From the NCBI GenBank assembly GCA_036172245.1, contig JAYWIR010000074.1:62001-126000 (forward strand): a stretch of DNA of 64,000 nt. The letters run 5' to 3'. The notes under the pieces are model-generated. The model had not been told where the DNA came from, did no database searches, and saw nothing but the letters and a program-made list of their open reading frames with translations. Each line of letters starts with the position of its first letter. The first letter of the stretch is position 1. This DNA is from Raillietiella orientalis (taxonomy: Eukaryota). Shown one piece after another: positions 1,720 through 54,000 of this stretch. The translations under genes and the position numbers were made by a program.

Positions 1720-4654
1720 ACCTGTGCAGGGGCTGAGCACTCATGGCCTTAAGCGTTTAGTAAGCTCGCAAAGCTGGATTGCCAGACCTGTCTCTCAGCC
1801 CCAGCTTTATATTCCGCCAGGTTGCGGACGTCGGGATTCCTGGAGTGAGTACGGGCGTGTAGGAACGCACCGACATTCCTGATTCCTAATCCGAAACCTG
1901 AAGCCTTTGCCGAAAGTCGGTGTGGGTAGACGTGTTTTTTATTCCCTCCGCCAGCGCTTGTCTAGGAAGCAACCGGAGTTTTTAGTGTAGTCAGGTGTAA
2001 AGTGTGGGTCGTCGGTGTCCAATGGCAGCCGTGCCAGAAAACACCGTAATGGATGTAGTTGTGAGAGCGGCAAGTCCTCCCACACAACCTACGGCTATGG
2101 GGGCAATAGTTCCTGGAACGTCTTCGCAGCCGGCGAAGACTTGGAGTGAAATGGTAGCCGCCCCCAGTGCAAAGGCCATGGTTGAGGAAGCCGTCTATCG
2201 GGCCTCTGAATACAAGCCATCGCTTGTATACAAGGTAGCCCTTTGTTTGAGGGAAACACGGCGCCATCTTTCAGCAGAGCGCTTCGAAATGCTTATGTCC
2301 GTGAGGAAGACCTGGAAGCTCTGTGCGTGCTCAGCGGGGCGCAGCAGATTGAGCTGGTGTGCAAGAGCATCAGCCTAGTTGATCGCCTGATAAATACCCC
2401 GCTGATCATGGACGGGCGTAAGATCTTCCCGGTGTCAATGGACCACTCGGTAGTGGTCCACTTGACAGGAATATCTAAGCGCATGACGCGCTCTGCCGTC
2501 AATGAGGAATTAAGTAAATACGGAAACGTACACGCTCTGTGGCCGAAGCCTACAATATTTGAGGGCTACGGACGCCACTTCGGGGGCCTCGCCGCAGCAC
2601 GTGTAGCCCCAAAAGACGAAGCGAAGCTTCCCTACAAACTTGAGGTTGCGGGAGAACCGGTAGTCCTCTGGTATGCGGACAAGCCACGGTATTGCGGCTA
2701 CTGCGATGCGGTCGGACACATCCGAAAGAGGTGCCCAAACAGCGTATGCTACTTGTGCGGGGAGAAAGGACACGTGCGTCGTGTGTGCCCTAAACGCCCC
2801 ACTTCGATTCCCTCGGCCGCCAAAAAGGCGCAAGAGAAACGCGCGGGGAAAGAAAAATTGGAAGACCGTGAAACTGGCCGAGAAAAGCTGCCAATAACCC
2901 AAGCTTCAAGCGCGGCATCGGAGAAAAATCTTCCCGAAACCGCAGAGAGAGAACAGGGCTGGCAGCTAGTCAAAGTTAAAAAAGAGAAAAAGGGCAAGCA
3001 TGTCCCGAAGAAAGGAGAGAAGGCGGCGGCCGGAACAAAAGCTCCACCCGTGTCGCGAGTTAAAACTCTCCGAGAATGCACGGTTACGCTGGAGCACATT
3101 GACGTTCCCGCCGACACCAACGGAGGGGATACGGCTTCGATCGATTTTCCCGCCGCGACGAATGCGCGCGAAAACCCACCCACTGCTTGCAAAGAGGGTC
3201 AGCCGGACGACCAAATTGCCGAAACCAAGGACGCAGCCTTCGAGAAGGCCGCCGAGGAGCTTGTGGCAACGCTTGCTGAACGCGAGAACCCTTCGCGAAA
3301 GGGGATGCGTAGGCCGGCATCGGCTAAAGTGGCCCCCGCAGGTGAGTCGGACCGGGAGGCAAGAAGTGCATCCTCCTCTGCGGAAGCACCATCAAGGAAA
3401 GCAAGGCCAAAATCCCAGAAACCCCGATGGTGCATTCCTCCTCCGCGCGAATGGAATCCAATGGAGGAGGATCCAGTGTATGGCAGCGTGGGAGCCCAAG
3501 TCGGGCATCACCCAAGTGCAAAAACCGACGAGCAGGCAACTCCAATGGAGGAAGGTAACCAGAGGTTAGCAATGCCCCCTAAAACCGCCGAACCTGAACC
3601 ACCCGCACCAATGGATGTGGGCCAACAGGTACGAGCAACACCACCTTCGCCCGGGCAGCCGAAGACGTCGGCACGTAAGAAGGATTGGGAGTTGGTGGGC
3701 AAGACGCCAACCCCGTCCAGCGACCCGTTCCAAAAGGTGGCGGAAGCCCCACCGCCAAGTTCCCAGGAAGAACACCTGGACTCGCCTCTCGCCGTCGGAT
3801 CCGCGCGGCCAGTTGGAATGTTAACGGGCTGCGCGACGACGGAAACAGACGAGATACAGCCGCCACCTTGCGAGATTTCGACCTGGTACTTTTGCAGGAG
3901 ATTCACGTGATCGCCGCAAAAGACGCTTAAGAGATCCAAACGATTGCGGGAGGGCGGTTGTACTGGCGATGCGGCGCCCGCAACGCTCGTGGGGTCGCGT
4001 TCTTCCTAAAGCCAGCCTTTAACGCGGCCGTGAAGGGCGTGCGCTTTGGGGACGACGGACGGATCGGCCAACTGATTCTCAGATGGTCCGATTCGATCGA
4101 CCTCATCGTCACCAATGTGTACGCTCCTAGCGGTAAACAGGGATACCAGCAGCGCAACGCGTTACTGGAAACCTTGAAGCGCGAATGGCTGGTGGAAGCG
4201 GACGTGCGAAAGGCGCATCTGATAGCAGGGGATTTCAACGTCCGTCTGCTCTCAGATCAGCCCGGAGCACAGGGGAACGCGATCAACGAGTTGTGCGCCG
4301 CCATGCGCGCGCGCAACTTGTTGACAGAAATAAGCGGGATGGTCAGCAGCGTGGACCACGTCTTCCTCGACGAAGACCTGTGCACACGGGACGGAAAACG
4401 AGAGACTCTTGGATCGACGCAGTCGGAACATTCCCGGTTATAATTCAAGATGAGCAGGCGCGACAAAGGACCGCCATCCAGGGATTGGCGTATGCCAGTG
4501 GACTGGACGCACCTGTCAGGAGCGAAAGAACATCTTCGCGAATTCCTGAGAGGCGTCATCCTCCAGAGTCTCGCGAATCGAAACCTATTTATGTACTCGG
4601 TCTGGGAGTTATGCGAACAGTTTTCTGTGCAAAGTCTGCCCCGGGGATTCGGCG
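1720..4654 (+). mobile_element. Element B: 5' half of a LINE (leader, ORF1, APE), cut in the APE-RT linker by element C
   Basis: ORF1 from ATG 2022 with knuckles CGYCDAVGHIRKRC and CYLCGEKGHVRRVC; APE motifs SWNVNG, QE, NVYAP, GDFN, VDH; ends at LPRGFG. Confidence 0.93.
2022..3910 (+). pseudogene. ORF1 (gag-like nucleic-acid-binding protein, 2 CCHC knuckles) of element B, frameshifted near 2240-2290
   Basis: ORFs 2004..2378 and 2243..3910; homologous to the other ORF1s here; the original stop was probably near 3772. Confidence 0.85.
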
Positions 4655-7600
4655 TTGTCACCCGGGTACGCCCGGGGCGTTTATTTGTAAACTCTGTACG
4701 CATGGTTCGAGGCCCCACCACGGCCCTAAACACAAGACCTGTTGGGAGACCGGGACGCAGCCCGACGTGGCACTCCCCGACAGCGAAGGGGGATGGGAAG
4801 AAAAAAAAAATAAAAATGAAAAAAGAAACAAACAAAAAGAAGTTGGAGGGCAGGGAAGGGATCACTGGTCGCTTTGGGGAGGGACCATCCGTCGAACGAA
4901 GCCCTCGAGGTCAGTCTGCATATTCTTCAGTTGTGGCCATCCGGCAGCTCTTTGCAAGAAGCGTTTGGCATACGGGATGACATCCCTCGCCTGTGGACCC
5001 ACTCCTTCGTTGTTGGCGTCGCTCCATGCCCCCACGATGCCACGGACGCAGCACAAGGCTGCGATGGCTGCGGCTGGCTGCAGTGCGTCCTTCACGAAGA
5101 GGGGCCGAAGAACGTCTCTGGGGGTGCTGCCCGTAGGGAGCCCGAGGGTCGTCCCGAACCGTTCCCAAAAGGGTCGGAGGGCAGCACAATCCACAATAAG
5201 GTGGGGAAGCGACTCCCGCTCCCCGCACCTGGCACACGCAGGATCCACAGCTCCCCTCGTCCAGTGGAAGCGGCGCGCGTTGCAGGGTAGACCCCAGTGC
5301 AACAAAAGCAACGCCGACTCTTACCACTTGAGGGGTAGGATCCTGGATTCCTTCATCACCGGGGGCCACTTCAACTCATCCCTGGGGATGGCGAGCAGCT
5401 CGCCCCATCTTAATAATCCTCTCGGCTGGACGCTCGGGGTCGTGGCGTCGGCCAGTTCTCCTGTTGTTTAGCCGCTAATCAACTTCTCGCGTCCCTCGAT
5501 GCGGCAGCAAACTTGCCAACTTGGAGTCCGGCTGCTGTGAAGTGCCCTCCTCAGGAAGGGCAGCGCCGTAGCTAGGCAGATCTTCTCTGCCCACGTGCAT
5601 CTTGCTGGACTGTCCAGGAGATTCCGCAGCGTGCAGCGGGCGTAGGGGCTGTATCGGAGACGATTCCACAATTCGTGGCTCCTCTGGTTGACCGCTGCCT
5701 ACGTTCCAATATTCTCCTCCAGCCAGGCGGGGTAGTTGTCAGTGCAGCAAACCATCCAGCTGTTCTCCTTGGCCAATGTTGCCGTGCGCCCGAGCCGTAG
5801 GCCGCATCTTCGTATCTTCCGGCCACGGCTCACAAGAAAAGATGCGAGTCCATCGCTCCTTGACACACGACTGGAGAGGAGGCGGGTCGGAGTACACCAA
5901 GGGGTGCTTCACATCTTCGCTGCGATGGCGAGGGTTCGCCACAGCAGCTGTTTTTCCACGCGCTCCAGCGTCAGAAGGCCAAGATTGCCGTCCCGATGCG
6001 GAGCGCACAAGTCCTTCAAAGGGACTCGCGGTCTCCCTTTGCCCCAAAGGGCGAAACGGAGGAGGTCCTTTGTCCTCGTCTCCGATTCCACGGTGGGGGG
6101 GCATACAAAGAGCAAATGGCGGAGGATAGGGGCCGCGAAGGCGTTCCAAACCGTTGCCCGTTCCGGCAAGTGAAACTTGCCTCCCAGGAACGACGCGATG
6201 GCCGTCTCGACTTTTTGGAAGCAGCGGGACCACGTTTCCGCAGGGGAGTAGCCCCCCAACGGCACATGAAGGTAGTTGAAGCACCTCGCCGTGGGAATCC
6301 GCAGACGGTCCCAGTCCTGCTGCCCTGCCTGCGTCGCACCTATTGTCACCACCGACGACTCTGCCCTGTTGACCTGCAGTCCTGTCCCGCGACTGGAAAG
6401 ATCGAAGAAGTCTCCGACCGCCTTTGCCGGGGTGGACATTGGCAACAAGAGCAGAAGATCGTCGGCGTACGCTGCTACGGCGGGCGTGCCGGGGCACGAG
6501 CTCGGCAAGGGGGCCAAAGTCACCCTGTACGCTCTCAGCACCAACTCAAAGTAGGTGCTGAAGAGCAGGGGGCTGAGGCTTCCTCCCTGCCTTATGCCCC
6601 GCCGCACCGGCACGCCATACACCTTGTGACCGCTGAAAGAGACGGTAATCATCGCATTCCACCAGCAAGAGCGCAGGTAGGAAATCAGGGAGGGTGGGAA
6701 GCTCATGCGACCCAGGAGCTTGAAGAGTAGTTCCTTGTCTACACAGTCGATTGCCTTGTGGAGGTCGACTGCGAGCGTTGGGGCCCCCTTCCTCGCCCGA
6801 GGTTTCCTTCTTTGCCCGGCTGGCGGCCCCAATGTGGGGTTGCCGACTTTCCCTATCCCTTTCTTCTCTCTTCTCGGCAGGTGAACCCATGTGATTGCGA
6901 AGAAGAGGTTGGCATCCATGCTTTACCCGGGAACAGCATAAGTCTGCTCCGGGCTAATTACGGATTGTGCCACCTGCCCCAGACGCGAAGCCCATAGCCC
7001 TGCTATTAACTTGGCGTTCGTATTCACGATCGTGATTGGATGCCAGTTCTTTAAATCTCTGAGGTCTCTCCCTTTCGGAAGGAGCCTCACTCTGGCTGAC
7101 GGAACCGAGGCGGGAACATCGCCTTCGTCTCGAATCAGCCTGATCAACTTAAGCAACAGGGGCGTCAGCTCTTCCGGAAAGCTCTGAAGGAACTCTGCGG
7201 GCAAGTTATGTTCCCCTGGAGCTTCGCGCCTCTTGAGCCTTTTGATACCGGCGGGAATTTCGCCGGTGGTAAAAGGCTCGTCGAGGCTTTCTATCTCCTA
7301 CTCCCTTATTGCCGGGGCGCCATCCGGAAGCAAGCGGCGAGAAGCGTCTCGATCCGGGGGCTCCCTGGCGTAAAGGGAGGAATAAAAACTCCGCACGAGA
7401 TGCCGTACCGACGCCGGGGACAAACATTCCCGCCCCTGGTCGTCCAACAAGCTGGCCGACCCGGATTGCGAGGCTTTGCGTTCGGCCCTGGCGCGGTAAT
7501 CATCCAGGCGACGAAGATTAAAGGTTCTCTCGTACCTACGAGCATGTAAATAGGCCCGATGGTTGCAAATGCCCTTGGCGAATCCGGGGGGCAGGCGGTC

Positions 7601-7672
7601 TGAGTGGAACTGTCCACAGATCTCCCGGAGCGAGGCCTTAAAAAGGTCTTAATTTCTAAGATTCTGGAGCGT
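4655..7672 (-). mobile_element. Element C (famC): LINE lacking its 5' part, linker-RT-zinc finger-3' UTR
   Basis: ORF 5909..6919 has DLHKAID, QGGSLSPLLF, YADD; CARCGERESLPHLIVDC; terminal box at 4655-4665. Confidence 0.95.
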
Positions 7673-10600
7673 CCAGCGGACGTGTCTTTTTGCTGCTTTT
7701 GAATTTCATCTCCGTTGGTGCTTTTGCGTGGTGTGGGTGGAGGATTAGGCAGCAATGTCTCATACCACCACCGGTGAGGATCCCAAGGCGATGACCTCAT
7801 TGCCGCCGGAGGAGATGGAGGTGGGGGATCCCGCATCAGTGAAGGCTACCGCCAGCACGGATGCGCCCTTGTCCCTAACCAGGGCTTAGAACGCCGAGGC
7901 TGCGGCACCTACGCCAGCGGCTATGGCGAAAATGCGCGCTTACCTGGAGGAGGTGTGTAACCCATTCCTTCTATATAAGGTAGACGGTCTATATTCTCCT
8001 GGGAACGCGCGCGCTTTCTCGCAGGCGATGCGCGTTCTAGGCGTACAAAAAGAGGAGCTTTTGGCTATGTCCGTCAGAAGCGGTGGTCAATTTGTGGAAG
8101 TTATCTGCAAGGAGGCAACTCTTGCGCAAAGACTTCTGCGGACCCTTGTAATTATGGGGAGCCGGAGGCTTCTCCCAATTACTGAAGACCGGTCGGTGAT
8201 CATTCACCTGACCGGTATCACGTTCCGGATGACGAAGGAGGCTGTCCGGAACGAATTAGAAAAATTCGCAACTGTCCGCGCGCTGTGGGGTGAGCCTACG
8301 TTTTTTGTTGATTACGACGGGGTGCTTGGCAACCTGGGTGCAGCGCGAGTAACGGTCCGCGAAGCGTGTGAGTTTTGCCACAAACTCACCGTCAACGGTG
8401 AGTCCACTGACGTCGGGTACGTGGGGACACCCAAGTTCTGCGGCTGCTGCAGCAGCTTTGGTCACCATAAAATGACGTGTCCGAGCGTGCAGTGCCAGCA
8501 ATGCAAACAAGCGGGGCACACCCGTCTGGTGTGCCCCCAAAACACAGACCGCGTCGTGTCCGCAAAAAACGCAAGGAAGAGCGCGGCTAAAAAAAGAAAG
8601 AAGATGCCAACTCGTGCTGCTGCTTAGGAGGTTAGCTCCGCCACCAAGGCGAAGGCCAGTCCCGAGACCCCGGCGAAAAACGCCGAAAAGGTCGAGGGTG
8701 AGGGTCAAGACCCAGGGTGGCAGAAGGTCGACCCCAAGAAAAACTCCCATAAGAAGGGATAGAACGTGGCGAGACGGAGCGAAGCCGCTCTGCGCCGCGA
8801 AAAAATTAAAAGCTGCTGCGTCGTTGTAGAGGGAATTGCCTCCATCGACGAATGCGGCGCTAAAGAACTCGCTGCTGCCCCTGCTCAACCCTCCGTTGAC
8901 AAAGTCAACAAGGAGGGGAGCGAGGCGGCGGCGTCCGTCATCGAGCCCACGCTCGATGACGTCGCTTTCAAGCGCGCCGCGGAGGAGCTGGCTGCCTCGT
9001 TGCAGCCGGTCGCCCCCAAGGCTGGCAAGAAGGCCGTGAGGCGTCCGGCCTCCCCTCAGGAATTCTCCACTTCCGTCCTTGAGGTGGAGGCCGGAAGCAC
9101 AGCTTCCATCTCCAGCGCAACCCGCAAAAAGGCTGTACGAAAGTCCACAAAGCCCAGGAAGATCGTCTCCTTCGACGAAGGGGAAGAGATGGCTTCCGGC
9201 TGCGAGGGTGCGATGAGCGTGGGAAACTCCCGGGACCCGTCGCCGAGAGAATCATACGCTCCGGCACGGAGGGGATGGAGGGGGTGGAGGCCGAACAAGT
9301 GCCCCTGGTGCCTGAAGAGGCCTCCGTCCCCATGGACATACCCAACACCTGCCCCGCGGCAGGTGGGGCAACTCCTCCTTCCCAGCAATAAAGCCGGGAA
9401 TCGCCTCCCGTCGTCGTCTGCTGATCGCCTGCTGGAACGTCAACGGGCTAAGTTACGACGGCAAGAGGGGTGACGTTGCCGCCACCCTGGCATCCTTCGA
9501 CCTGGTGCTGCTGCAGGAGATCCACGTGATCTCCGCAGATCAAGCCCGGGAGATCGAACGGATCTCGGGTGGTCGGCAGCTGTAACGCTGCGGTATTGCA
9601 AAATCTAGCGGTGTCGCCTTCCTGCTCCGGCCAGCCATCGAGACCACAATAAAGGACGTACGGTTTTATGACGCAGGTCGCGTCGGTCAGCTGACTCTCA
9701 GCTGGTCCGAATCAATCGACCTGGTCGTCACCAACCTGTACGCTCCTAGCGGTAAGGAAGCATTGAGGGCGAAGGCAAGAAGAGAATTCTACCTTGCCCT
9801 CGGAAGCGATTGGCTGATCGAAGCAGGTGTTCGCAAAGCGAACCTGATAGCAGGTGTCTTCAACCTGCGCCTGCTTTCAGGTGCGCCGGAGACACTGAAC
9901 GACCGCGTCAAAGAGTTGTGCGCGCAAATGCACACGTACAGCTTGCTATCCAAAGATACGGACATGGAACGGAGCATCGATCACGTGTACCTTGACCAGC
10001 ACCTATGCTCTCGCGTGGGCAGGCGCGGCAAGTTCCCGTCCCAGCTGTCGGACTATGGCCGAATCGTGTTCGAAGTGCATCCGCGCGACAAGGGTCCCCA
10101 ATCGTCAGCGTGGCGTCTACCACGGGACTGACTGAAGTACCCGGATGCGGCGAAACATCTCCGCGCGTTCATACGAAACTTAAGAATGCGCACGCTTCAG
10201 GACAGGGACCGCTTCAACCGGTCGTTCCAGGTGTTCTGCGACCGATTCCCTTTGCAACGCCTACCTGCGGGATTTGGGGAGGGGCCGCGTAACGAAAGGC
10301 GCTATCTTCAGGCCCGACGTTACGCGAGAACCCCCGACATGCGCAGGTTAGCAGTGTATCGAGCGGGAGCCGAGAGGCAAGCCTGGCAATCCGGGTCGTC
10401 CAGCTTGCTGGAGGACCAGAGCCGGGAGCACTCGGCTCCTTCTCAGAAGCGCGGGATTGTGAAGAAATTTTACTCCTCCCTGTACGCCAAGGCGCCTCCG
10501 GAGCGAGACGTCTCACGAGTTCTGCTTCCGGAAGGTGCTCCAGCGATTGGGGAGGAGGAGAAAAGGAGCCTCGACGAGCATTTCACGATAGACGAGATTA

Positions 10601-13200
10601 TCTTGGCCATCGCAAAGCTCAAGAGGCGGAAGGCTCCAGGGAAGGACAGCCTGCCCGCAGAGTTTTAGCAAACTTTCGCGGCAGAGCTTACCCCCCTGGT
10701 ACATCAGCTCACCTTGCTGATTCGCGAGACAGGTGACGTTCCCACCTCGTTTCGTTCAGGAAAGGTGCGGCTCCTACCAAAGAGAGGAGAACTAAGGAGA
10801 ATGAACAACTGACGTCCCATCCCAATAGTGAAGGCGGACGCCAAGTTGATAGCGAAGGTTTGGATAGAGAGGTTGGGACGGGTTGCCAACATTTTCATCA
10901 GCCCGAAACACACATATGCTGTTACTAGGCGAAGCATGGAGGCGAACCTGTTCCACGCTCCCAACCTGGCTAGAGCTCCAACAAGAAAGGAGCTTGGTGC
11001 GCAGCCGGAATTTCGGTGCGTCCGTTGGCGGGAAACATGACGGTCGGGTGGGGAAGGGAGCTCTTGTGGTCGCTGTCGACTTGCTTAAAGCATTCTACAG
11101 CGTCGTCCAGAATCTCCTGCTGGAGATTCTGGAACGCTTGGGCTTCCTGGCCTCTTTGTTAGCCTACCTGCGCTCCAGCTGGCGCGATGCGCTCATTAAT
11201 GTTCTTTTCAGCGGGCAAACCGTGCACGGAGTACCGGTGCGAGCGGCATACGGCAGGGAGACAGCCTGAGCCCCCTGCTCTTTAGCTCCTTTTTTGAATT
11301 GGTGCCGAGAGCATACAGGGAGACTCTGGCGCACCTGCCGCGCGTTTGTCCCGGTACGCCTGCGGTTTAGGCATACGCGGACGATCTTCTGCTACTCATC
11401 ATTATGTCCACCCCGCATTCGGCGGTCGAGGAGTTCTTCGACCTCCTGCATCAGGGAACCGGACTTATAGTGAACAGGGCGAAGTCGTCCGTAATGCCAG
11501 TCGGAGCGGCGTGGGTAGGGCAGCAGGACTGGGTCCGTTTGGGGATCACCACGGTGAGCTACTTCAAGTACCTTGGTGTGCCGTTAGGGGACTACTCCCC
11601 TGCGGAAGCGTGGTCCGGCTGCCTTCAGAAGGCTCAGGTGGCGATCGGCCCGTTCCAGGACGGCAGGCTCTACCTGCAGGAACAGGCGCGGCGTTGAACG
11701 CGTTTGCGGCACCCCTCCTTAGCCCCTTGCTTTTTGTTTGCCCCGCCCCCGTGGAATCAAAAATGCGGACGAAGGACCTTCTCCGCATAGCTCTATAAGG
11801 CAAGGGGAGGCCCCGAGTCCCTTTGAAGGACTTGTGCGCTCCGCGTCGGGACGGCGGTCTCAGCATCCTGACGCTGGAGCGCGTGGAAAGCCAGCTGCGA
11901 TGGCGAACTTTCGCCATCGCAGCGAAGATGTGGAGCACCGCTTGGTCCATTCCGGCCCGCCTCCTGGCCAGACGTGTGTCCCTCTGCGGAGGACTCGCAT
12001 CGTTTCTTCTGTGCCCTGGGCGGAAGATTCGAAGATGCGGTCTACTGCTCGGCCCCATGGCAACCCTGGCAAAGGAGAACGACTGGATGGTTTGTGGCCC
12101 CGCCAACTCCTCCTCTTGGCTGAAGTTGACTGCTGGCACCTGGGCCAAGCAGAACCAGAGTTGCGAAGACCGGATTTACTGCCTGCGAGTCGGCTTTTAC
12201 GCCCGCCGAACTCTCCCTGAAATTCTTGAATTTCCACCGAGTTGCACGTGGGAGGAAGGCACACCCCTTGTTACGGCGATGCCCTTCCTCCAAAGGGCGC
12301 TTCACGAAAGCCGGAAGCCAAGGTGGCAAGTCTGCTTCCGTATCGCAGGCAGAGAGAAGATGATGAGCGGCTGGACCATGGGAGAGTTGACAGATGCAAC
12401 GACCCCTAGTCTCCAGCCGCGTGGATTAAGAAGATGGGGCGAGCTGCTCGGCATTTGATTGGAAGACCTGGAGTGGCTTCCGGTTCTACTTGGATCCAGG
12501 ATTCTTCCCCTGAAGTGGCAAGAATCGGCGGTTCTGTGGCTGCATTGGGGTCTACCCTGCAACGCGCGCCGCTTCCACTGGACGCGGGGAAGAGTAAATC
12601 CTGCGTGTGCCAGGTGTGGGGAGCGGGAGTCGCTCCCCCACCTCTTAGTTGAATGCTCTGCCGTCCAGATTTTCTGGGATCGTCTGAAAACGGCCCTCCG
12701 GATACCGGATGGTGGCAATGTTGGATGTGTCTTCAGTCTTGTCTTCGTGCGGGACGCCCTCAGTCCAGCCGCAGCCCTGGCAGCACTTTGCTGCATTCGT
12801 GGTATCGTGGCGGCCTGGAGTGATGCCGAAGATGAAGACTGCATCGTGAGGGACGTCATTGAGCATGCTTCTTGCTTCCTGAAGAGAGCTACCCGATGGC
12901 TCAATCTAGGAAAACTGAAAATGGAACTAGAAGGCATCCTGCAAAGGATGGGCGCTCTCAGCAGTCTTCTGTGATCCCTTCCCGGCCTTCCAAACTTTTT
13001 TTTTGTGGTTTGTTTTTCTCTTTTATTTTATTTTTGTTTTCTACCCCATCCCCCTCCACTGCCGAGGAGAGCCTCACCGGGCTGCGTCTCGGTGTCCCGG
13101 AAGTTCCGGTATTGCGTGGCCGTTAGTGGGGCTTTGTACCACGTTCTGTATTGACTGTTGAAATGTTTTTAGTAAACGTCCCGGCGTATCCGGATGGCAT
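7673..13200 (+). mobile_element. Element D (famD): full-length (~5.5 kb) but degenerate LINE
   Basis: 5' motif ggacgtgtcttttt at 7678; ORF1 knuckles (7923..8627); APE ~9400-10130; RT with YADD ~11375; zinc finger; stop 12974; terminal box ccggatggcat 13190-13200. Confidence 0.95.
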
Positions 13201-15676: not shown

Positions 15677-15755
15677 TTGTCAACCGGATATGCCGGGGCA
15701 TTTTTTATTCTAATTTGTTACAAAAATTAGATAATAAAGTCTTTTAAAAGATTTC
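15677..15755 (-). mobile_element. Element A2: ~80-bp 3'-terminal remnant of a famA LINE
   Basis: Reverse complement resembles the last 80 nt of A4 (48341-48420), including tgccccggcatatccggttgacaa. Confidence 0.85.
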
Positions 15756-24340: not shown

Positions 24341-24379
24341 TCATGTGTAGTGGCGTATGCTTAACCGTTTTAGGTTCAG

Positions 24380-39310: not shown

Positions 39311-39342
39311 AAAATCCGGCTTTAGGACTAAAGCCGGATTTT
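39311..39342. repeat. Perfect 15-bp inverted repeat with a 2-nt spacer
   Basis: aaaatccggctttag-ga-ctaaagccggatttt. Confidence 0.95.
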
Positions 39343-40713: not shown

Positions 40714-41520
40714 GATGCGCGCTCTCGATGTGAAAGAGGAGGAGCTCAGCGCTATGACCATCCGCAGCGGAGGTCAGTACGTTGAGGTCATCTGCAAACA
40801 AGCAGAGCTGGACCAACGACTGCTAAAAACCCCTGTGGTGATAAGGACGCGCAGGTTCCTCCCTATTACGGCGGACCGCAGCATGGTGGTCCACCTGTTA
40901 GGTGTTACCGCGCGGATGCGCAAGGAACAGGTTCCCGCCGCGTTGGAGGAATACGGAACGGTCCACGCGCAGTGGACGAAAGTTAGTCCTTTCGAGGACT
41001 ACACGGAGCTGCAACACATCCTCACTGCTGCGCGCGTGACCGTTCGGGAGGGCTGCACTCATCCCCACAAACTGGTGGTCGAAGGCGGAACCGTCGACCT
41101 CTGGTATGTGGGGAAGCCGAAATACTGTGGCTTCTGCAATACGTCGGGCCACCTCAAAAAGAGGTGTCCCAATGTGCAGTGCCAAGTATGCGGAACTATG
41201 GGACACACGAAGGAGGTGTGCCCTAAAGCAGCAGTGCGGGTGGTTTCTAAGAGAAAAATTAAAAAACGTGCCCGGCTTCTGCAGAAAAGGCTGGCGGCGA
41301 AAGCTACCGCGAAGGCTGTGCCACCCGCGCCCAAGGCCCAGGTCGCACCCTAGACCCCGGCGAACAACGCCGAACAAGTCGAGGGAACTAGCCAGGAGCC
41401 TGGGTGGCAGGTGGCTACGGCCAAAAAATCAAAGAAGAAGAGGAGGATGGAGAAAAAGCTCGCGTACCGCCAGAAAAAACAGCAGGCAAGCGAGCAAATT
41501 AAAAAATGCAGCGTTGTCGT
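40714..41520 (+). mobile_element. Element Q (famD, N-type ORF1): ORF1 fragment, outermost element of the right cluster
   Basis: ORF 40715..41353 has CGFCNTSGHLKKRC and CQVCGTMGHTKEVC; closely matches N 56873-57675. Confidence 0.93.
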
Positions 41521-43965: not shown

Positions 43966-46895
43966 CGGTCGCGTACGGACGTGCTTTTGCGTCGCTCCGC
44001 GGTAGATTGGCTCTTGTGTGTTTTTGTTCTGCTGTGCTTCTGTGCTGCAATGGGAGCAAGGAAGAACATCAGCAGCAAGGGAACGCCACCTGCTCCTGAG
44101 ATGGCTGCTTCGGCTGCTAGCAAGGAGCCTCTGTCCTCGCCGACGGCGAAGACATTCGCTCAGGTCGCTGCCCTAGCGGCTACGATGGAACCTTCGTCCG
44201 AGAGCCCTGAGCTTCAGGCGTATGTAGCAAATGGCTACACGCCTGCACTCAGGTATAAGTTAAGTGTCCTTATGCCTGAGCGGGTTGGGCGCGAGTTTGG
44301 CCAGGAACCACAACGGATTGGAGTTCAAAAAGGCCAACTGGAGTCCATCATGCCCATGAGTGGGTGCGGATACTGGGAGGTGTCAAGTAAGGACGCTCTC
44401 CTTACGCAGCGTTTGCTGCACACGCCGCTGCTCATTCGTGGGCAGGAAATACTCCCTGTCACAACGGACCAGTCGTTCGTTGTCCGGCTCAGTGGGGTGT
44501 GTAAGGGCCTTTCGGACCGCCAGATCGTGGAGGCCCTTGAAAAATTCACTACCGTCCACGCGCTTTGGAGGCTGCCAAACCCTGCTGAAGGGTTCGAAAA
44601 CCACCACAGCGGGCTCGCGCAAGTGCGAGTGAGGATGACGGATCGCCGTGCAATGCCCACGCGACTGCAGGTGGATGGAATGACCGTCCGCCTGTGGTTT
44701 GCCGGGCAAACGCGTGTATGCCCGGAATGCGGGCAGGAGGGTCATTGCATTACGAAGTGTCCCTCGGCCACTTCTCGTTACTGCCACGAGCACGGGCACA
44801 CTAAAGGAACGTGCTCGGAGCTCCTTTTAAAAAACGAAAAGCGCAGGAACGAATCGCGTTCCGCATTGCGTAATAATCGCCGCGAATCGAGAGAAAGAAA
44901 CATCAAAGCTCCGAAAAGCGTTGCGAAAACCGCGACCACGCACGTGCAGAAAACTGTTTCTCGCCCCCACAAAGAAGGGGTGGAAAACACAAAAAAACTC
45001 GTCGCGGCAAAGCCTCCGGCTATCGACCCGAAGGAAGCTCGCGAAGAATGCGACCTTTCTACGAAACCTCGCAGCCAATTGTTGAATGCAGAAGACATTG
45101 TGTCGAAGGTCAAAAAGCCTCCTACTTTCGGCATCACGACCGCGAAGCCTCCTACCAAGGCCTCGACGAGCGGCGCAGAATGCGGTTGTTTGCCCGATAC
45201 GGGAAAAACGCGCCCGCGAGCAAAGAACACCGCGCTGTCTGAAGCTACCGCGGCCAAGGTGCCCCAGGCGCCGAATGCTGCGAAGAAACAGCCGGCAAAC
45301 CCGCAGTACTCGCGCGCTGATGCAGCGCCTACTGCGTCCAAGGAAGAAACTGCTAGGGCGAGCACAACCGTTACAGCAGTGCCCCCAACGGTCGCAAAGG
45401 CAACGCGCGAACCCTCCTATCTGGAAGAGGCAGCGCCTCTCGCGATCGCTAAAGTTGTTGCTCACGCCTGCGTGGAGGCAGCACTCCAAGAGGCAGCCAA
45501 GGCAACGCCTCTCACATCCGTGGAAGCAGCGCCATCTCAGGATGGCAAAGATAACTGCGACGCGAAGGAAGACGGCTGGATGCAGGTGAGAAAGATCATT
45601 AAAAAGAAACCAACCAGGTCTTCGCAGCTCTGTGTAAAGGCGAGTGGGCAAAAGCAACCAGCGAAAGCATTCCAGAAAAAGATTGCGATTCTTTCCCCTG
45701 CGCAGTCGTCCTCTGGAGGATGGAGCGGGAAGCTGCTGCAGGGGCTAAAAGGACGAAAGTCCCAGCCGCAGTAGCAGAAAGCGCTAGAAAACATGCAGCG
45801 AACGATTTCCCTAATTTAGGGAAACAGCAGCAGCGCCTGGCAAGCCCTCGACTGTCGGATTCTGATCCAGAGTTCGCCAGAAAGAGCACACAGAGCGACA
45901 ACCGCCCGAAACCGCGCAATCGCCACCCAAAGACCCGCAAGTGCGTGGTTGCCGAAGAGGAACAGTTGCTAAGGAGCAAAGAGGAGAAAAAGGACCTCAC
46001 CTCTGAGCTACCGGCAAAAAGCAGTGCGGCTTCGAATGGAGATGTCCAGTCTCCGAGATCGACCGCTCTGTCTCTTGACCACTCTCCGGACAAGGCAAGA
46101 AATCTGTGCTCACCTTCAAAGCCTTAATGCAGGAAGTCGCCTCTTTTCGTCGATTCAGCGTAGCCTGCTGGAACGTCAATCGGCTGCGCAGGGACGAAAA
46201 GAGGCGCGACGTGTCAGACACCCTGCGACATTTCGATTTGGCGATCCTTCAGGAGATGCATTACATATCCGATGCGGAGGTAGCGGAAATCGAACAGCGC
46301 GCGGATGGCACCCTGTACTAGCGAAAAGGTACTGCACAATCGTGCGGAGTCGGTTTCCTCGTCAATAGAAGGATGGCGGGAGCGGTGCGCAGCGTTCGAT
46401 TCGACCAGGAAGGGCGAATGGGCCAACTTGTACTCAAGTGGTCAGATTCAATCGACCTCGTCGTAACGAACGTCTACGCGCCGAGCGGTTTTCATCGGCG
46501 TGTCGAAAGAATCGAGTTCTTCGACGTGCTGGAGAGCCAATGGCTCAGAAACTCCGAAGTCAGAGTGGCGCATCTCGTCGCTGGAGACTTCAACGTCCAC
46601 CTTCTTTCCAACGAGACGCGGTCCCTGGCGGAACGGTCGCGGGTGGAAGAGGCATGCGCGTCGGTGCGCGCGCGTAACTTGGAAGCCGGCGAGCCTGGAC
46701 TGGAAAGGTGCGTGGATCACCTCTACCTCGATTAACACCTACTCTCTCCAGTGGGAAGGAGAGGCAGGGTGCCGTCCACGTTATCGGACCATGATAGGCC
46801 GGAGTTCGAGCTACTCCCGCCTGGCAAAAGACCTCCAAACATTGTTTGGAGGATACCGGCAATTTCTCTGAGTCACTCGGAAGCGGCGAAGCATC
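43966..46895 (+). mobile_element. Element J: 5' half of a LINE (leader, long ORF1, APE)
   Basis: ggacgtgctttt at 43977; ORF1 from ATG 44050 with CPECGQEGHCITKC; TAATG at 46125-46129; APE WNVN, QE, NVYAP, GDFN, VDH, SDH. Confidence 0.93.
44050..46127 (+). pseudogene. ORF1 of element J (zinc knuckles, long Lys/Ala/Pro-rich tail), frameshift near 45730
   Basis: ORFs 43981..45774 and 45720..46127; stop overlaps the ORF2 ATG. Confidence 0.85.
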
Positions 46896-48420
46896 TTCGC
46901 GGCCCCCCTCTTTCGCCCCTTACTTTTTGTTTGCCCCGCCCCTCCCATCATACAGAGACGGACCAAAGCCCTCTTGAGGACTGCCCTTTAAGGCACAGCG
47001 AGGTCGCGATTCCGATTGAAAGACTTGTGCGCTTAACGCAGGGATGGTAACTTGGGCCACCTTCAGTTGGAGCGCATCCAACTACAAACAACACTTCGAA
47101 AGTTAGCCCTAGCAGCTAGCTTATGGCTGACGCCATGTTGCGATCGGGCACGGCTCCCCGCCAGAAGAGCGACCGGTTGCGAAGGATTGTCCTCGATTCT
47201 CGTGACCTACCAGCGCAGCCTCTCCAAATGTGGACCCGATTTACGACAGATGGTCGCCCTATTAAGGAAGAATACCTGGATCTCCTGCTTCTCCGCGAAC
47301 TGCACTGCCTGGCTTCAGGAGTCAGCTTCCGCGTGGGCTAAGATCAACGGCACGAGTTAGGCGGAATACAACTGCCTACGACGAGGACCGTACGCTCGAC
47401 AGCCGCTGCAGAAGATTATCAACACGCCCCGGAACTTTCTGTGGGCTTCTTTCAGCCCCCTTGCCCCCGTTTTGTCCTTCCTAAAAAACACTAGGAGCAG
47501 CAACGAGCGGGCATCGTGAGAAGTGTTCTGCCTCATCCGAGGCAGGAAAAATCCTTTAAAGGCGTGGACGACTCGGGAGCTCACGGACGCTGCCACCCCG
47601 AGCGTCCCGCCTCACGGACTTGCGCGCTGGGGAGAGCTGCTCGCAATACCTCCGGAGGAGGTGAAGTGGCCCCCAGAGTGTTGGGATTGCGGCACACTTC
47701 CGTTTTAGCAGCAGGAGACGGCGTTGCTATTTCTGCACTGGGGACTGTTAAGCAGAGCACGCCTGTCGCACTGGACACTGGGGAATGTGGATGCCCGCTG
47801 TGTCGAGTGCGGAGAAAGAGAAACCTTCCCGTATCTCACCCTCGAGTGTGTCGCCCTGGATGGACTCTAGATTTGAATGGCCCCAATCCTCCATCTTCCA
47901 GTAGACGACCCTAAGGAAATTTACCGTCGCCTCTTTCTGCGTGACGGCCTGCGCCCCGCTGCGTCTCTAACAGTCCTCTGCTGCGTGCGCGGCATCGTGC
48001 AAAGGTGGCACGTCAGAAGAAGAGGCTCAAGATGCAGGGACGCCATCCTCTAGACGACGATCTCTTTAGAGACGGCGACAAGGTGGCGTCTACCTTTCAC
48101 AATAAAACCCGAACTTGACTGCATCCTTGACAGGATGCGGAGGAACGAGCCAGTCGCCCAGTGATCCCTTCCCTGCCCCCCCCCCTCCCCATTTAACTGT
48201 TTCCCTCCCCGTTATCTCTCTTTTTGTTTGTTTTTGTTCTAGTTTTCCCTTCCCATGCGCCTCGGGAATGGACCTAACTGGTCTATGCACCGGCAACCGA
48301 CACGTCGAGCAAGGTGGGACAACCCAGTGTTTCCCCACAGAAAACATCTTTTTAAAGAATTTTTATCTAATTTTTGTAAAAAATTAGAATGTTAAATGCC
48401 CCGGCATATCCGGGTGACAA
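46896..48420 (+). mobile_element. Element A4 (famA): 3' part of a LINE, possibly the 3' end of J after an internal deletion
   Basis: Homologous to A and A3; joined to J through ttcgcg microhomology; terminal box ccgggtgacaa 48410-48420. Confidence 0.9.
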
Positions 48421-51013
48421 ACTCCGGATGCAATTGTTGTGAGCTCCGTGGATAGGGAGTTTTTTGTCTGGAGTTTCGTGTGTGTTTCGCGGCCGTTGAC
48501 AGGCAGAAACGCCTGTGAACGCCGCAGTTTTAGGTGAGGGATGCGGAAAGACCGCGTCTCCCAAGCCAAAGGAGGTGGGATCACGTCCAATTACTACTTC
48601 TGTACCCGCCACTACGGCGAGGGCCTGGAGTGCGTTGGCAGCGGCGGAAGCGCCCGATGTCTCCGCCGAAATCCAATCCTACATCCAGGAGGGCTACAAT
48701 CCGGAACTCCTGTACAAGGTAGGAAATTTATATCCCCCGTTAAGGGCGCGAAAGTTCGGCAATGCCATCAAAAAGATGGGCATTACCGACCATGAAATTC
48801 TTTGCCTGTCAATACGAAGCGGAGGGCAGTTGGCAGAGCTTATCTGCAAGGATCCAGCTCTTACCCACAAGATGCTCTGCACGCCCGTACAATTTGAGGG
48901 CAGGAAATTACTCCCACACACGGTGGATTACTCCATTGTGGTCCACATAACTGGGAGAACAGTGCGGATGGAAGAGAACGCCATCCGCGCTGAACTGGAA
49001 AAATTCGCTAGCATTTACGCGATTTGGAGAAAGCCCAACACCTTCAGAGTGACTGGTGCATTTAGTGGGCGAGTAGGCGCGCGCGTGACGCTTCGAAAAA
49101 GCGTACAGCTTCCCCACAAGCTCTAAATTGTCAACGAGTTCGTCGACATTTGGTTTGTGGGGAAACCTAAATTTTGTGGAAACTGTAAGTCGTTCGGGCA
49201 TTTGAAAAAGCGGTGCCCGGACGCGGTTTGCCCAACGTGCGGCGCGAAGGGCCACACCAAAGTGGTGTGCCCGATTAACGTCGCTCCAATGCCGGAACTT
49301 CCGCAAAAGAAGGAAGGGAAGGCAAAAATAGTGATAAACCCCATAAAAGGGGATCAGACGTCGGCTCCGACAAAAGTCGCGCAGCAGGAAAGGGACTCGG
49401 TACAGGAGCTCCCGGAAAAGACTGCCGACGAGGAAGGCTGGCAGCTGATCACCCGTAAAATAAAAATCATTAAAAAAACCGCGCCCGCACCGGCGAAAGT
49501 GGTGAAGGGCAAGTTGAAGATCGCGCCACGCCCAACAATCAAAGCGTGCAGCGTGGCCATGAAACGCGTGCCGGCGATTGATACTCGCTCTGCTGACGGA
49601 TCGTTGCGATGTCAGGTCATGTCAGCTGTTCAACCCGTCGCCGCGCGAACGCTGACGCCTCGACAAAGTCGTCAGCCCATCTTGAGAAGCGACGACCGCG
49701 ACTTCAATAAGGCAGCGGAAGAGTTGGCAGCCATGCTCCAGCAACCTCCCAAGGCCGAGAACAAGACCTTGAGGCGTCGGGCTTTCGCGAAAGGACCGGA
49801 GACTTCCGAGTCCGAAGCCGAAGCCGGCAATGGTATGCCTGTCGCTCTAACGAAACGCAAAGCGGGCTGCAAGGTAGGCAACCCGCGGCGCTCCACACAT
49901 CCACCGGCGGAAGAGGAAATGCGGTCGGACCACGACGACAAGGAGGCGATGTCCGCGAGGTCTCGCCGCTCCTCGCCGGAGACGGCTTTGGCCAAGCAGG
50001 ATCCTCCAACTACCACCACAACCACCGACGGACCGCCTCCTTGCGAGAAACATCCCGTCGCAATGCACACAATACTCCCGCCTGCTGAACAGCAGGCGGA
50101 GGACGGTAAGCAAACACCATAAACACACCAACGCGTGGACTCTCCTCCTGCCGGCGACTGCGCGTAATCTGTTGGAACGTCAACGGGTTGCCCGACGACG
50201 GCAAGAGAAGAGAAGTGGCCGCCAGCCTGCGGGACTTCGATCTGGCGCTTCTGCAGGAGACGCACGTGCTCCACGCAGAGGACGCCCAGGAAATCGAACG
50301 GACCGCAGGCGGGCGGCTCATATACGAGAACGGGAGAGACCGCACCCGCGGTGTGGCTTTCATGCTGAAGAAAAACGTCGTTAATGCGCTGCGCGACGTG
50401 CACTTCGACGGGGTTGGTCGAATCGGGCAACTTGTTCCCAAGTGGTCCGACGCGATCGACCTCGTCGTAACCAAAGTTTACGCGCCCGGCACGAGCCACA
50501 GGCGCGGGGAACGCACTGCGTTCTTCGAAGGCCTGCGGCGAGATTGGCTGGCCGAAGCAGACATGCGAAAGGCGCACCTCATTCCCGGGGAATTTAACGT
50601 CCGCCTGCTGGCAGGTGCGCCCGACATTCGCGCACAGCTGGTCAACGAGATGTGCGCTGCCATGCACGCGCGCAACTTGTTGGCCGGTGACACCGGGACG
50701 GAGACGAGGATCGACCACATGTTCCTCGACAACCACCTGTGTTCGCGGGTGCGAAATCGAAGGGTAGTGCCAATTGAACTTTACGACCATCCACGGCTCG
50801 TGCTAGAAAAACACCCGCGCGGTAGAGGTCCACCCTCCACAGCATGGCGTTTTCCAAGGGACTAATTGCGCCTCGCAGGAGCAGCGCAACATCTTCGCTC
50901 GTTCCTGCAAGGCTTCCATCTGCAGTCGCTCGCGGACTGGAACGACTTGAAGAGCAGAGTCCGCGAGTTCTGCCACCAGTTTCCCCTGAACCGTCTTCCT
51001 CCAGGTTTCGGCG
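48421..51013 (+). mobile_element. Element K (famE): 5' half of a LINE, cut at LPPGFG by element L
   Basis: ORF1 48515..50122 with knuckles; APE 50188..50865; homologous to E. Confidence 0.94.
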
Positions 51014-54000
51014 TTGTCACCCGGGTACCCCCGGGGCATTTATTTGTAAACTTTACATGCGTGGTACGAGGCCCCACCACGGCCGTAAACAGAGGACCTG
51101 TCGGGACACCGGGACGCAGCTCGGCGTGGCACTCCCCGACAGCGAAGGGAGTTGTGGATAAGACAAAAAGAAAAATAAAAAGAAACAAACAAAAGCAAGT
51201 TGGAGGGCAGGGAAAAGATCACTGGTCGCTGTGAGGAAAGTCCATATGTCGAACGAAGCCCTTGAGGTCTGTCTGCATATTCCCCAGTTAAGGCCATTCG
51301 GCAGCTCTTCGCAAGAAGCGTTGGGCATACGGGATGACATCCCTTGCATGTGGACCCACTCTTACGTTGTTGGCATCCCTCCATGCCGCCACGATGCCAC
51401 CGACGCAGCACAAGGCTGCGATGGCTGCGGCTGGCTGCAGTGCGTCCTTCACGAAGAGAAGTCGAAGAACGTCTCTGGGGGTGCTGCCCGTAGGGAGCCC
51501 GAGGGTCGTCCCGAACCGTTCCCAAAGGGGTCGGAGGGCAGCACAATCCACAATAATTTGGGGAAGCGACTCCCGCTCCCCGCACCTTGCACACGCAGCA
51601 TCCACAGCTCCCCTCGTCAAGTGGAAGCGGCGCGGATTGCAGGGTAGACCCCAGTGCAACAAAAGCAACGCCGACTCTTACCACTTGAGGGGCAGGATCC
51701 TGGATTCTTTCATCACCGGGGCTACTTCAGCTCATCTCTGGGGATGGCGAGCAGCTCGTCCCATATTACTAATCCTTGCGGCTGGACGCTTGGGGTCTTG
51801 GCGTCGGTCAGTTCTCCTGTTGTCCAGACGCTAATCAACTTCTCGCGTCCCTCGATGCAGCAGGAGACTTGCCACCTTGGCGTCCGGCTGCTGTGAAGTG
51901 CTCTCCTCAGGAAGGGCAGCGCCGTAGCTAGGCAGGTTGTCTCTGCCCACGTGCATCTTGCTAGACTCTCCAGGAGATTCCCCAGAATGCAGCGGACGTA
52001 GGAACTGCATTGGAGACGATTAGAAGTTTCGTGGCTCCTCCGATTAACCACTGCCCACGTTCCAATATTCTCCTCCAGCCAGGCGGGACAGTTGGCAGGG
52101 CAGCAAACCATCCACCTGTTCTCCTTGGCCAATGTTGCCATGCGTCCGAGCACTAGGCCGCATCTTCGCGTCTTCCGGCCACGGCTCAGAAGAAAATACG
52201 CAAGTCCATCGCACCACGACAACCGGCTGGCCAGGAGGCTGGCCGGAGTGCACCAAGGGGTGCTCCACATCTTCGCTGCGATGTCGAGGGTTAGCCACCG
52301 CAGCTGCTTCTCCACGCGCTCCAGAGTCAGGACGCCAAGACCGCCGTCCCGACGCGGTGCGCACAAGTCCTTCAGAGGGACTCGGGGCCTCCTCTTGCCC
52401 CAAAGGGCGATACGGAGGAGGTTCTTTGTCCTCTTCTTCGATTCCACGGTGAAGGGGGCAAACAAAAAGCAAGAAGCGGAGGATGAAGGCCGCGAAGGCG
52501 TTCAAAACCGCGGCTTATTCCAACAAGTGAAACTTGCCTTCCAGGAACGGGCCGATCGCCGTCTCGACTTTTTGGAGCCAGCTGGACCACGCTTCTGCAG
52601 GGGAGTAGTCCCCCAAGGGCACACCAAGGTACTTCAAGCACCTCGCCGTGGGGATCCCCTGACGGACCCAGTCCTGCAGCCCGGCCCACGTTGCACCTAT
52701 TGGCACAACCGACGACTTCGCCCTGTTAACCTAGAGTCCGGTCCCGCGGCTGAGCAGATCGAAGAAGTCTCCGACTGCCTTTGCCGTGGTGGACATAGGC
52801 AACAAGAGCAGAAGATCGTCGGCGTACCCAGCTACTACAGGCGTGCCTGGGCACGAGCTCGGCAAGGGGGTTAAAGTCACCCTGTGCGCTCTCAGCACCA
52901 ACTCAAAGTAGGTGCTGAAGAGCAGGGGGCTGAGGCTACCTCCCTGCCTTATGCACCGCTGCACCGGCACGCTATACACCTTGTGACCGCTGAAAAAGAC
53001 GGTAATCATCGCATTCCATTAGCGAGAGCGCAGGTAGGAAATCAGGGAGAGTGGAAACCCCATGCGACCCAAAAGCTCCAAGAGGAGTTCCTGGTCTACA
53101 CAGTCGAACGCCTTGTGGAGATCGGCTGCAAGCGCTAGGGCCCCATTCCCCGTCCAGGGGTATCTTAACAGCCCATCTGGCGGCCCCAATGTTGGGTTGT
53201 CGACTCTCCCTATCCCTTTCTTCTCTCCTCTCTGCATGTGCACCCATGTGCTTGCGAAGAAGTGGTTGGAATGAATACTTCGCCCGAGAACAGCATAAGT
53301 CTGCTCCGGGCTAATTACGGATTCTGCCACCTGCCCCAGACGCGAAGCCCATAGCCCTGCTATCAACTTGGTGTCCGTATTCACGATCGTGATCGAATTC
53401 CAGTTCTTTAAATCCCTGAGGTCTTCCCCTTTCGGAAGGAGCCTCACTCTGGCTGACCGAAACGAGGCGGGAAGATCGCCTTCGTCTCGGCTCAGCCTCA
53501 TCAACTTAAGCAGCAGGGGTGCCAGCTGTTCCGCGAAGCTCTGAAAGAACTCCGCGGGCAACCTATCTTCCCCTGGAGCTTTACGCCTCTTCAGCCTTTT
53601 GATACCGGCGAGAATTTCGCCGGTGGTAAAAGGCTCGTCGAGGCTTTCCATCTCCTCCTCCCCTATTGCCGGGGCGCCATCCGGAAGCAAGCGCTGAGAG
53701 GCGTCTCGATCCGGGGGCTCCCTGGCGTAAACGGAGGAATAGAAACTCCGCACGAGATGCCGTACCGACGCCGGGGACGAACATTCCCGGCCCTGGTGGT
53801 CCAGCAAGCTGGCCGACTTGGATTGCCAGGCTTGGCGTTCGGCCCCGGCGCGGTACTCGGCCAGGCGACGGACATTAGGGGTTCTTTCGTACCAATGAGC
53901 CTGTAAATTGGCCCGATGGTTGCAAGGATCCTTGCCGAATCAGGCAAGCAAGTGTTTTAGGGGGAGCTGCTCCCAGAACTCCCGGACCGAGGCCTTAAAA

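Follow-up and report, generated by a model that had tools for sequence, protein, structure and literature searches.

How a retrotransposon that settles among copies of its own kind comes to be joined to them at one particular nucleotide is the question raised by a 64,000-nucleotide (nt) stretch of DNA from Raillietiella orientalis (GenBank assembly GCA_036172245.1, contig JAYWIR010000074.1, positions 62,001 to 126,000 of the forward strand). This stretch is called the window below, and all positions are counted from its first letter. Two blocks, at about 1-24.6 kb and 40.7-64 kb, consist almost entirely of fragments of a single group of retrotransposons that lack long terminal repeats (non-LTR), as revealed by self-comparison, Pfam and tblastn. 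An earlier sequence-only reading had reported three antisense insertions at the same nucleotide of the linker between the endonuclease and reverse transcriptase (RT) domains of such elements. This observation is confirmed as real and lies far from chance.

The elements follow a common plan, in which a first open reading frame (ORF1) with a CCHC knuckle precedes an ORF2 composed of an apurinic/apyrimidinic endonuclease-like domain (APE) and an RT. The Pfam scan, run on the 193 stop-to-stop frames of at least 110 amino acids (aa) in the window, detected Exo_endo_phos at 58158-59561 (36.5 bits) and also at 50110-50862 and 13376-13981, RVT_1 at 59486-61693 (67.7 bits), following Exo_endo_phos within one element, and zf-CCHC in the frame 2210-3907 (25.5 bits), to which the ORF1s of five further pieces (D, E, J, K-host and L) are homologous. 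With an APE that precedes the RT and a CCHC knuckle in ORF1, the elements are APE-type, L1-like non-LTR retrotransposons (L1/Tx1 superfamily). A zf-RVT match in piece A (786-1379) scored 21.6 bits, under the cut-off of 27.5; a C..C..H..C pattern is found at the end of L, and PF13966 is present on the nearest atlas clusters and on several distant matches. Among 55 protein matches, the nearest public protein is a single metagenome fragment with 64% identity, and all others are L1-like proteins with zf-RVT and an identity of at most 30%. Every copy in the window is decayed by stops and frameshifts, and even L, the best-preserved one and the query used for tblastn, has its APE and RT in separate frames. 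The two blocks were divided into 22 pieces, five of which are 5' portions or full-length copies. The C-terminal part of the RT defines five families: famD (L and D, Kimura two-parameter (K2P) distance 0.07), famC (C and K-ins, 0.12), which is about 0.3 away from famD, famG (N and G), famJ (J, H and A) and famF (F, M and I).

At each of the three linker joints the reading frame of an older element, here called the host, runs to LP(R/P/S)G(F/Y)G plus one base (..SLPRGFG, ..RLPPGFG and ..SLPSGYG), where the host stops and the complete 3' tail of another element follows in reverse complement. The first host, B (1925-4654, plus strand, 5' limit approximate), comprises a 5' untranslated region (UTR), the ORF1 with the CCHC knuckle, the APE and the linker to LPRGFG, and reads ggattcggcg/ttgtcacccgg at 4654/4655, where the slash marks the joint. 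Its partner is the famC insert C (4655-7672, minus strand), which has a complete tail at 4655 and an RT running from 7213 to 5135, and is 5'-cut 95 nt ahead of its own linker site. The second host, E (13201-15677, minus strand), contains a 5' UTR, ORF1 (15599 to 14208), APE (14119 to 13379) and the linker to LPSGYG, and reads ggttacggag/atgccatccgg on the minus strand. It faces D (7673-13200, plus strand), a full-length famD element (ORF1 7743-9281, APE 9319-10717, RT 10642-12846) whose tail ends at 13200, so that on the plus strand the host begins with position 13201, the one quoted earlier for this joint. The third host, K-host (48421-51013, plus strand), includes a 5' UTR, ORF1 (48500-49981), APE (50059-50835) and the linker to LPPGFG, and reads ggtttcggcg/ttgtcacccgg at 51013/51014. 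Here the insert is K-ins (51014-54356, minus strand) of famC, which has a complete tail at 51014 and an RT from 53570 to 51435, and starts within the APE motif GDFN, at FN.

In a three-way alignment the joints occupy one column, which bears out the claim of a shared nucleotide and antisense orientation; the C with which all four famC and famD flanks start may be the last base of the tail, which would shift all joints by one base and keep the register. That two host families and two insert families are involved is likewise supported by K2P distances of 0.51 between B and E or K-host (0.29 between the latter two) and of 0.34-0.35 between D and C or K-ins. The sequence-only reading had also noted that the 3' flanks of the inserts share C(G/T)CC. 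This holds for famC and famD, where four of four flanks begin in this way, the fourth being cgccccc after the tail of L at 62051/62052, and does not extend to the other nine flanks, which start with CGAC, CCAG, CTCC, CCTG, ACGAC, TCGAAC (twice) and TTTCAA (twice).

The window contains 13 joints of an element tail. For that number distributed over a 5.5 kb element, the expected count of triples at one nucleotide and in one orientation is 2e-6. In simulations, the probability of a triple is 4e-5 even when the target is reduced to the 3.4 kb ORF2 and a tolerance of +-1 nt is allowed, and that of two different coincident sites is 4e-4. Six linker sites in the window are unoccupied: C, K-ins, D, G1 and L each have one in their own linker, and the 190-nt fragment R has the sixth. 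In addition, an empty site was found in a relative: in one contig of run X1, which includes relatives 85-99% identical to the window elements, a K-host-like linker (to 51011) continues in sense into an N-host-like RT. The same contig, 3755 nt long, stops 7 nt past the position that corresponds to another joint described below (63520), which may be a branch point of the assembly graph or chance.

The three linker joins are separate events and not copies of one composite. The inserts C and K-ins differ by a K2P distance of 0.12 over 2 kb, as against 0.51 over 900 nt for their hosts B and K-host. Maximum-likelihood trees group C with K-ins and D with L, each with support of 100/100, and L is found at another joint. 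Since the terminal branches of the inserts (0.049, 0.077, 0.048 and 0.026) are shorter than those of the hosts (0.15, 0.12 and 0.20), each insert is younger than its host. Beside the joint, B and K-host share no additional identity beyond the conserved motif, with 15/20, 12/20 and 13/20 matches in successive 20-nt bins, similar to other host pairs. The idea that a flank of the host had been transduced by the invader was rejected, as there is no excess of identity between B and K-host at the joint.

The linker is not the only position that is used repeatedly. At a second antisense site, the famG elements G (20508-21578, plus strand, from RT aa 488 to the tail) and N (62052-63519, plus strand, from RT aa 361 to the tail) are joined, at 21578/21579 and 63519/63520 respectively, directly after the KxFD of RT motif A, with the sequence AAGG(C/A)GTTCGA(T). 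The hosts are P (21579-22095, minus strand), a famC-type piece that begins about 25 aa ahead of RT aa 1, ends at ..KAFD and has its 5' end after the tail of H, and N-host (63520-64000, minus strand), a famF-like RT N-terminus that ends in ..KEFD and continues past the edge of the window. G and N are 81% identical (K2P 0.22) and their hosts are separated by a K2P distance of 0.70; the KxFD joints thus repeat the rule independently, for a different family and at a different site. The site thus tracks the incoming family: the linker carries two of two famC copies and one of two famD copies, that is, three of the four scorable copies of these families in the window, and KxFD carries both famG copies. 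The chance probability of this association is about 0.03, a rough estimate that assumes partners drawn from five families. With recurrent joints of other families, the picture shifts from one site to a family-by-family rule.

Two further joints recur in sense orientation. Behind the famF tails of F and M lies in each case an element whose start is the FN of GDFN. F (15748-18615, plus strand, from linker aa ~395 to the tail) is connected through its tail and an A-run to G1 (18622-20501, plus strand), a famD-like piece that begins at this FN and ends at RT aa 367 within a conserved CTTTTTGTTTGCC block, and M (54357-56523, minus strand, RT aa 148 to the tail) is connected to K-ins between GD and FN. 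With 0.50 for both pairs of partners, the distances do not differ, and descent of both GDFN joints from one composite is possible. The 5' cut points at GDFN agree within 1-3 nt (18616-18622 and 54353-54357). Furthermore, famJ tails directly precede the complete 5' ends of K-host and E: the tail of J (43963-48420, plus strand) abuts K-host, and s15678 (15678-15745, minus strand), a 68-nt famJ-type tail fragment, lies immediately ahead of E, with distances of 0.19 and 0.29 between the partners of the two joints.

The remaining tail joints are single. In sense, L (56524-62051, plus strand, 5' limit approximate), a full-length famD element with an APE frame at 58158-59561 and an RT frame at 59486-61693, is followed by N, which starts at RT aa 361, and H (22096-24345, minus strand, famJ, RT aa 114 to the tail) is followed by P. 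In antisense, I (41521-43962, minus strand, famF-like, RT aa 26 to the tail) is joined to I-host (40709-41520, plus strand), an ORF1 fragment 90% identical to L that ends at ..GTTGTCGT, and A (1-1715, plus strand), a 5'-cut, famJ-like piece identified by tblastn, its tail, distances and flank identity that covers RT aa ~292 to the 3' tail, is joined to R (1716-1905, minus strand, 5' limit approximate). R, recognised by blastn and translation, spans from about 30 nt before the linker site (..SGFGLGIRN..) to about 170 nt past it, and is flanked by the tail of A on one side and by the 5' end of B on the other. Among the 13 tail joints, antisense ones (7) slightly outnumber those in sense (6), and all 13 connect to other elements of the group.

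Break points, most of them without a tail, cluster at the conserved CTTTTTGTTTGCC block (PLLFVCP, RT aa ~355-367). Two of them fall at the block itself, namely the point at 11697-11751 where the mosaic D switches from a 5' part unlike L to a 3' part near L, and the end of G1 (20489-20501). N starts 7 nt before the block (62052-62075), and the internal deletion of J, which spans the linker through RT aa 355 and coincides with a CTTCGC microhomology near 46895 (46880-46900), ends about 25 nt before it.

All 13 element 3' ends share one tail, which consists of AATAAA, a short CCCGG..CCGGG motif and then GTG(A/G)CA(A/T) or a few A, with a consensus resembling AATAAAyGyCCCGGnnTAnCCGGGTGACAA (for example 4655-4704 on the minus strand, and 13151-13200 and 48371-48420 on the plus strand). 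None of these 13 ends has a poly(A) tail, as the CCGGGTG(A/G)CA(A/T)-like end is followed by at most 2-6 A. Because the motif persists between families that share only about 50% identity in their RTs, it is probably the signal that the RT recognises. A hairpin in the tail was considered and rejected: a stem of 4-5 bp is conceivable, but covariation is essentially nil (1/5 pairs, energy -0.37). Homology or complementarity between tail and flank, in direct or reverse-complement comparison, reached p<0.05 at none of the 13 joints; in the absence of such pairing and of a carried-over flank, the position is not set by annealing.

The word insertion describes the linker joints only in part. They are antisense joins of complete tails, but past the insert's 5' end the host continues at none of the 13 tail joints, and target-site duplications (TSDs) are likewise missing; therefore these are not ordinary nested insertions. 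While the 3' ends of the inserts are constant and complete, their 5' ends vary, C being cut at the linker and K-ins at APE aa 182, and D being full length. What lies beyond the insert 5' ends is the 5' end of an element on the opposite strand, in a head-to-head arrangement, either between a cut copy and a full-length 5' end (R/B, C/D, I/J and M/L) or between two cut ends (s15678/F and H/Q). In general, a host meets the tail of an antisense insert, to which a second element may be attached in sense, and this chain abuts head-to-head a mirror-image chain that ends in a second host. For example, the order is B, C, D and E at the left, with C and D head-to-head, and K-host, K-ins, M, L, N and N-host at the right, with M and L head-to-head. 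Several other arrangements were rejected. E and C are not the two halves of a single element that D had interrupted and that had gained a 95-nt TSD, as they belong to different families and, by inspection, the overlap matches poorly, and family distances dismiss B plus F and K-host plus N as split hosts.

A complete RNA 3' end on a DNA 3' end, together with variable 5' ends, fits products generated by target-primed reverse transcription (TPRT). The favoured reading, which is given about an even chance, is a family-specific, site-directed TPRT into sister elements with a non-canonical 5' resolution. The sense strand of an older sister element would be nicked right after ..T(T/A)CGG(C/A)G, at the end of the LPxG(F/Y)G codons, and the 3'-OH so exposed would prime complementary DNA (cDNA) synthesis starting from the extreme 3' end of an RNA of famC or famD; priming at the nick would fix both the nucleotide and the antisense orientation. 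The endonuclease or ribonucleoprotein (RNP) of the incoming element, aimed at coding motifs conserved across sister families, may be what picks the site, since the site tracks the incoming family. That the invader itself makes this choice is an evenly balanced proposition on the sequence evidence. A site-bound nickase would have no second site nearby, and the cDNA would be finished by end-to-end template jumps that attach the tail of one element to a 5'-cut element on the same strand. Such a chain would then be joined head-to-head with a chain from another nicked, oppositely oriented host, in a long-range form of twin priming that would delete the intervening DNA, including the downstream half of the host. 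Site-directed joining is well supported by the joints; from their arrangement we infer the nick, the nicking enzyme and the twin-priming-like resolution.

Other processes can be envisaged. The ends may be determined by the host, the joint being a recurrent 3' end of host sense-strand DNA and not chosen by an endonuclease; such an end would arise as a cDNA on an antisense host RNA with its 5' end at the site, or by a stall or break during second-strand synthesis, and the RT would then jump to the 3' end of any element RNA. Hosts that are always 5' portions stopping at the joint and never resuming agree with this, and E and K-host each have a famJ tail right before the 5' end, as if copied with upstream DNA. 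The six sense joints of a tail with a 5'-cut element show that jumping-like joins are common here, recombinant or deleted elements (the mosaic D, the CTTCGC deletion in J and the end of G1) break at conserved blocks, and every recurrent joint lies within a conserved motif. However, the partner family is not arbitrary, as the linker has only famC or famD (3/3) and KxFD only famG (2/2), and structure at the sites is limited to a CCCCGGGG palindrome in B alone. Determination by the host is considered rather unlikely, without being negligible.

Alternatively, one or two old joins could have been multiplied as ready-made composites by segmental duplication, gene conversion or read-through (3' transduction). 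In line with this, the E and K sides are colinear over three pieces, a famJ tail, a host and an insert (11163-15752 versus 53038-48346), with about 73-76% identity throughout, and the two pairs of recurrent sense joints (F/G1 and M/K-ins; s15678/E and J/K-host) have similar partner distances, so that descent from one composite is possible for both pairs. Multiplication of this kind is nevertheless improbable, given that hosts and inserts differ so unequally both for B/C against K-host/K-ins (0.51 and 0.12) and for P/G against N-host/N (0.70 and 0.22), that B and K-host have no extra identity beside the joint, and that, taken as a whole, the two halves of the window do not present their pieces in a colinear order. 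Moreover, the fully supported grouping of D with L and of K-ins with C, on short terminal branches, means that D and K-ins could be leftovers of a single insertion only if dead 5'-cut copies had spawned new ones. Little probability is also assigned to the healing of broken ends, in which elements would be added to double-strand breaks or chromosome ends in a process where no endonuclease chooses the position and coincidences mark fragile points of the host. The chain-like build, with 13 tail joints, no TSDs and head-to-tail runs from M to K-ins, from L to N and from F through G1 to G, would suit such a process, and self-accumulating arrays of long interspersed nuclear elements (LINEs) at ends are reported for Zepp (PMC3446292, PMC8226300) and CNL1 (PMC12810828). 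But end healing predicts the other half of the host on the far side in the same orientation, which is seen at 0 of the 7 antisense joints, and random breaks leave the exact recurrence and the family-to-site rule unexplained; furthermore, the window has no telomere-like or other tandem repeats.

Several observations weigh against site-directed TPRT. The host is never resumed and TSDs are missing, and the recurrent joints all lie in the most conserved motifs (GDFN, LPxGFG, KxFD and PLLFVCP), which fits host-dependent processes too. Unoccupied linker sites differ from occupied ones by as little as one base (TTCGGCA in K-ins and TTCGGAT in R), a base that could derive from the insert, and the known occupied linker targets amount to three sequences. 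K-ins and M also carry, unoccupied, the 11-mer that adjoins the KxFD joint of P. The closest relative of D, namely L, has its joint elsewhere and in sense, at RT aa 361. For the pairs E/D and K-host/K-ins the raw distances are alike (hosts 0.29, inserts 0.35), so it is the tree that separates these two events. All of this evidence comes from one 64 kb window. A wider version of site-directed TPRT can be put forward tentatively, with a probability distinctly below even: the sister LINE families may form a guild whose endonucleases each cut a different, highly conserved ORF2 motif of the competitors (GDFN of the APE, LPxGFG of the linker or KxFD of RT motif A), where antisense landing would break them. 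As the nick would be single-stranded and bound to its site, the joining of converging cDNA chains would complete integration, delete host DNA and build the cluster.

Between the two blocks, a 16 kb stretch (24-40 kb) has a G+C content of 0.45-0.50, compared with 0.54-0.60 in the blocks. Frames of at least 110 aa in the lower-G+C DNA at 24640-40700 have no Pfam match, and Rfam has none there either; within it, a weak, distant RT fragment with 37% identity to L is located at 32980-33529, and a 332-aa frame at 30658-31653 appears to be non-coding. The Rfam and tandem-repeat scans of the whole window returned no matches and no telomere-like repeats. The left block closes with Q (24369-24640, plus strand), a 270-nt ORF1 fragment of the E/K-host family that faces H head-to-head at the latter's cut 5' end; directly beyond Q, the DNA of low G+C begins. 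A GGACGTGT motif at 24393 had been a candidate for a full-length 5' end beside H, and was rejected because it belongs to this ORF1 fragment.

LINEs that gather in their own copies are known from other organisms. In the green algae Chlorella, Coccomyxa and Chlamydomonas, the L1-type elements Zepp and ZeppL cluster by insertion into existing copies, and Zepp has been reported on new Chlorella minichromosomes, a precedent for end healing (PMC8226300, PMC3446292). The likeness includes clusters richer in G+C than their surroundings (61% versus 53% in Coccomyxa, about 58% versus 45-50% in the window), many 5'-cut copies, and copies joined to members of the group (13/13 tail joints in the window). 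In contrast, Zepp forms tandem arrays that contain mostly 3' ends, whereas the window mixes several sister families and has 7 of its 13 tail joints in antisense, and the accessible descriptions mention no nucleotide-exact target. The 55 protein matches include no named green-algal one, and the likeness is one of description. Zepp also has a poly(A) tail, unlike the window elements. A further comparison is CNL1 of Cryptococcus neoformans, alongside which MoTeR of Magnaporthe may be named. CNL1 is a non-LTR element that is reported to insert preferentially into its own copies in arrays, with a specificity stated to be undefined (PMC12810828). The same source places it with R2-type elements, which have a single ORF and a restriction-like endonuclease, near telomeres, whereas the window elements are APE-type, possess an ORF1 and have no telomeric repeats (PMC12810828).

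A nucleotide-exact 3' joint in itself has parallels among APE-type elements. Within the window, independent copies share the joint nucleotide and orientation three times at the linker and twice at KxFD. Site-specific LINEs of the APE type include TRAS/SART and members of the Tx1 group such as Keno, Mutsu and Tx1L. R1-type APE LINEs provide a precedent for specificity encoded by the endonuclease (PMC1919474), and the APE domain is described as its carrier in site-specific elements more generally (PMC1919474, PMC4640811, PMC7265360). The window resembles these in an exact 3' joint in a multicopy target, a fixed orientation and the lack of a long poly(A) (PMC1919474, PMC4640811, PMC7265360). The window targets differ in being coding motifs of LINEs of the same superfamily and not ribosomal RNA, small nuclear RNA, telomere or microsatellite sequences, and there is no matching 5' joint or TSD; in addition, several families with separate sites share one cluster. 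The head-to-head joins of two cDNAs and the homology-free sense joins of a tail to a 5' end recall L1 twin priming, 5' inversions and RT template jumping, as known for L1 and R2. In L1 twin priming a single RNA is used and the two nicks lie a few bases from each other, whereas the chains in the window come from different RNAs and two host elements, and kilobases of host are lost.

Searches of public data provided few relatives. A 27-nt degenerate tail pattern had no match in metagenome contigs, and RT relatives there were limited to five loci, all of them distant (22-32% identity). One of the five, a metagenome contig of 5642 nt (L001), was considered as the same kind of joint, and was rejected because both of its elements look 3'-complete. 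It carries L1-like elements tail-to-tail, with a plus-strand RT with zf-RVT to about 2566 and a minus-strand RT from 4208 to 2868. A 20-nt tail pattern occurred in 6 viral and 40 prokaryote loci; as all 46 lack an RT relative and show no likeness outside the pattern, they were set aside as chance matches. In the literature searched, which does not include the original Zepp papers, no description was found of LINEs joined at a fixed nucleotide of the ORF2 of another LINE. What would be new here is that the targets are ORF2 coding motifs in sister LINEs, that the orientation is antisense, and that several families each have their own site.

To conclude, the window offers nucleotide-exact, independently reused positions within conserved ORF2 motifs, together with a family-to-site rule, that bear on how self-targeting LINEs, such as Zepp and ZeppL at algal centromeres and CNL1 at the chromosome ends of a fungus, find their own copies. 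If the ends prove to be host-determined, the window would preserve, as few natural sequences do, a series of template jumps made by a LINE RT. If site-directed TPRT into sister elements is correct, the coding sequence of another LINE would join the short list of targets of site-specific LINEs, and sister families would compete by direct disruption, in a site-specific parasitism of LINE on LINE. Such joining would also provide a mechanism for the growth and rearrangement of chromosome domains built by retrotransposons, including clusters of the Zepp or centromere type.

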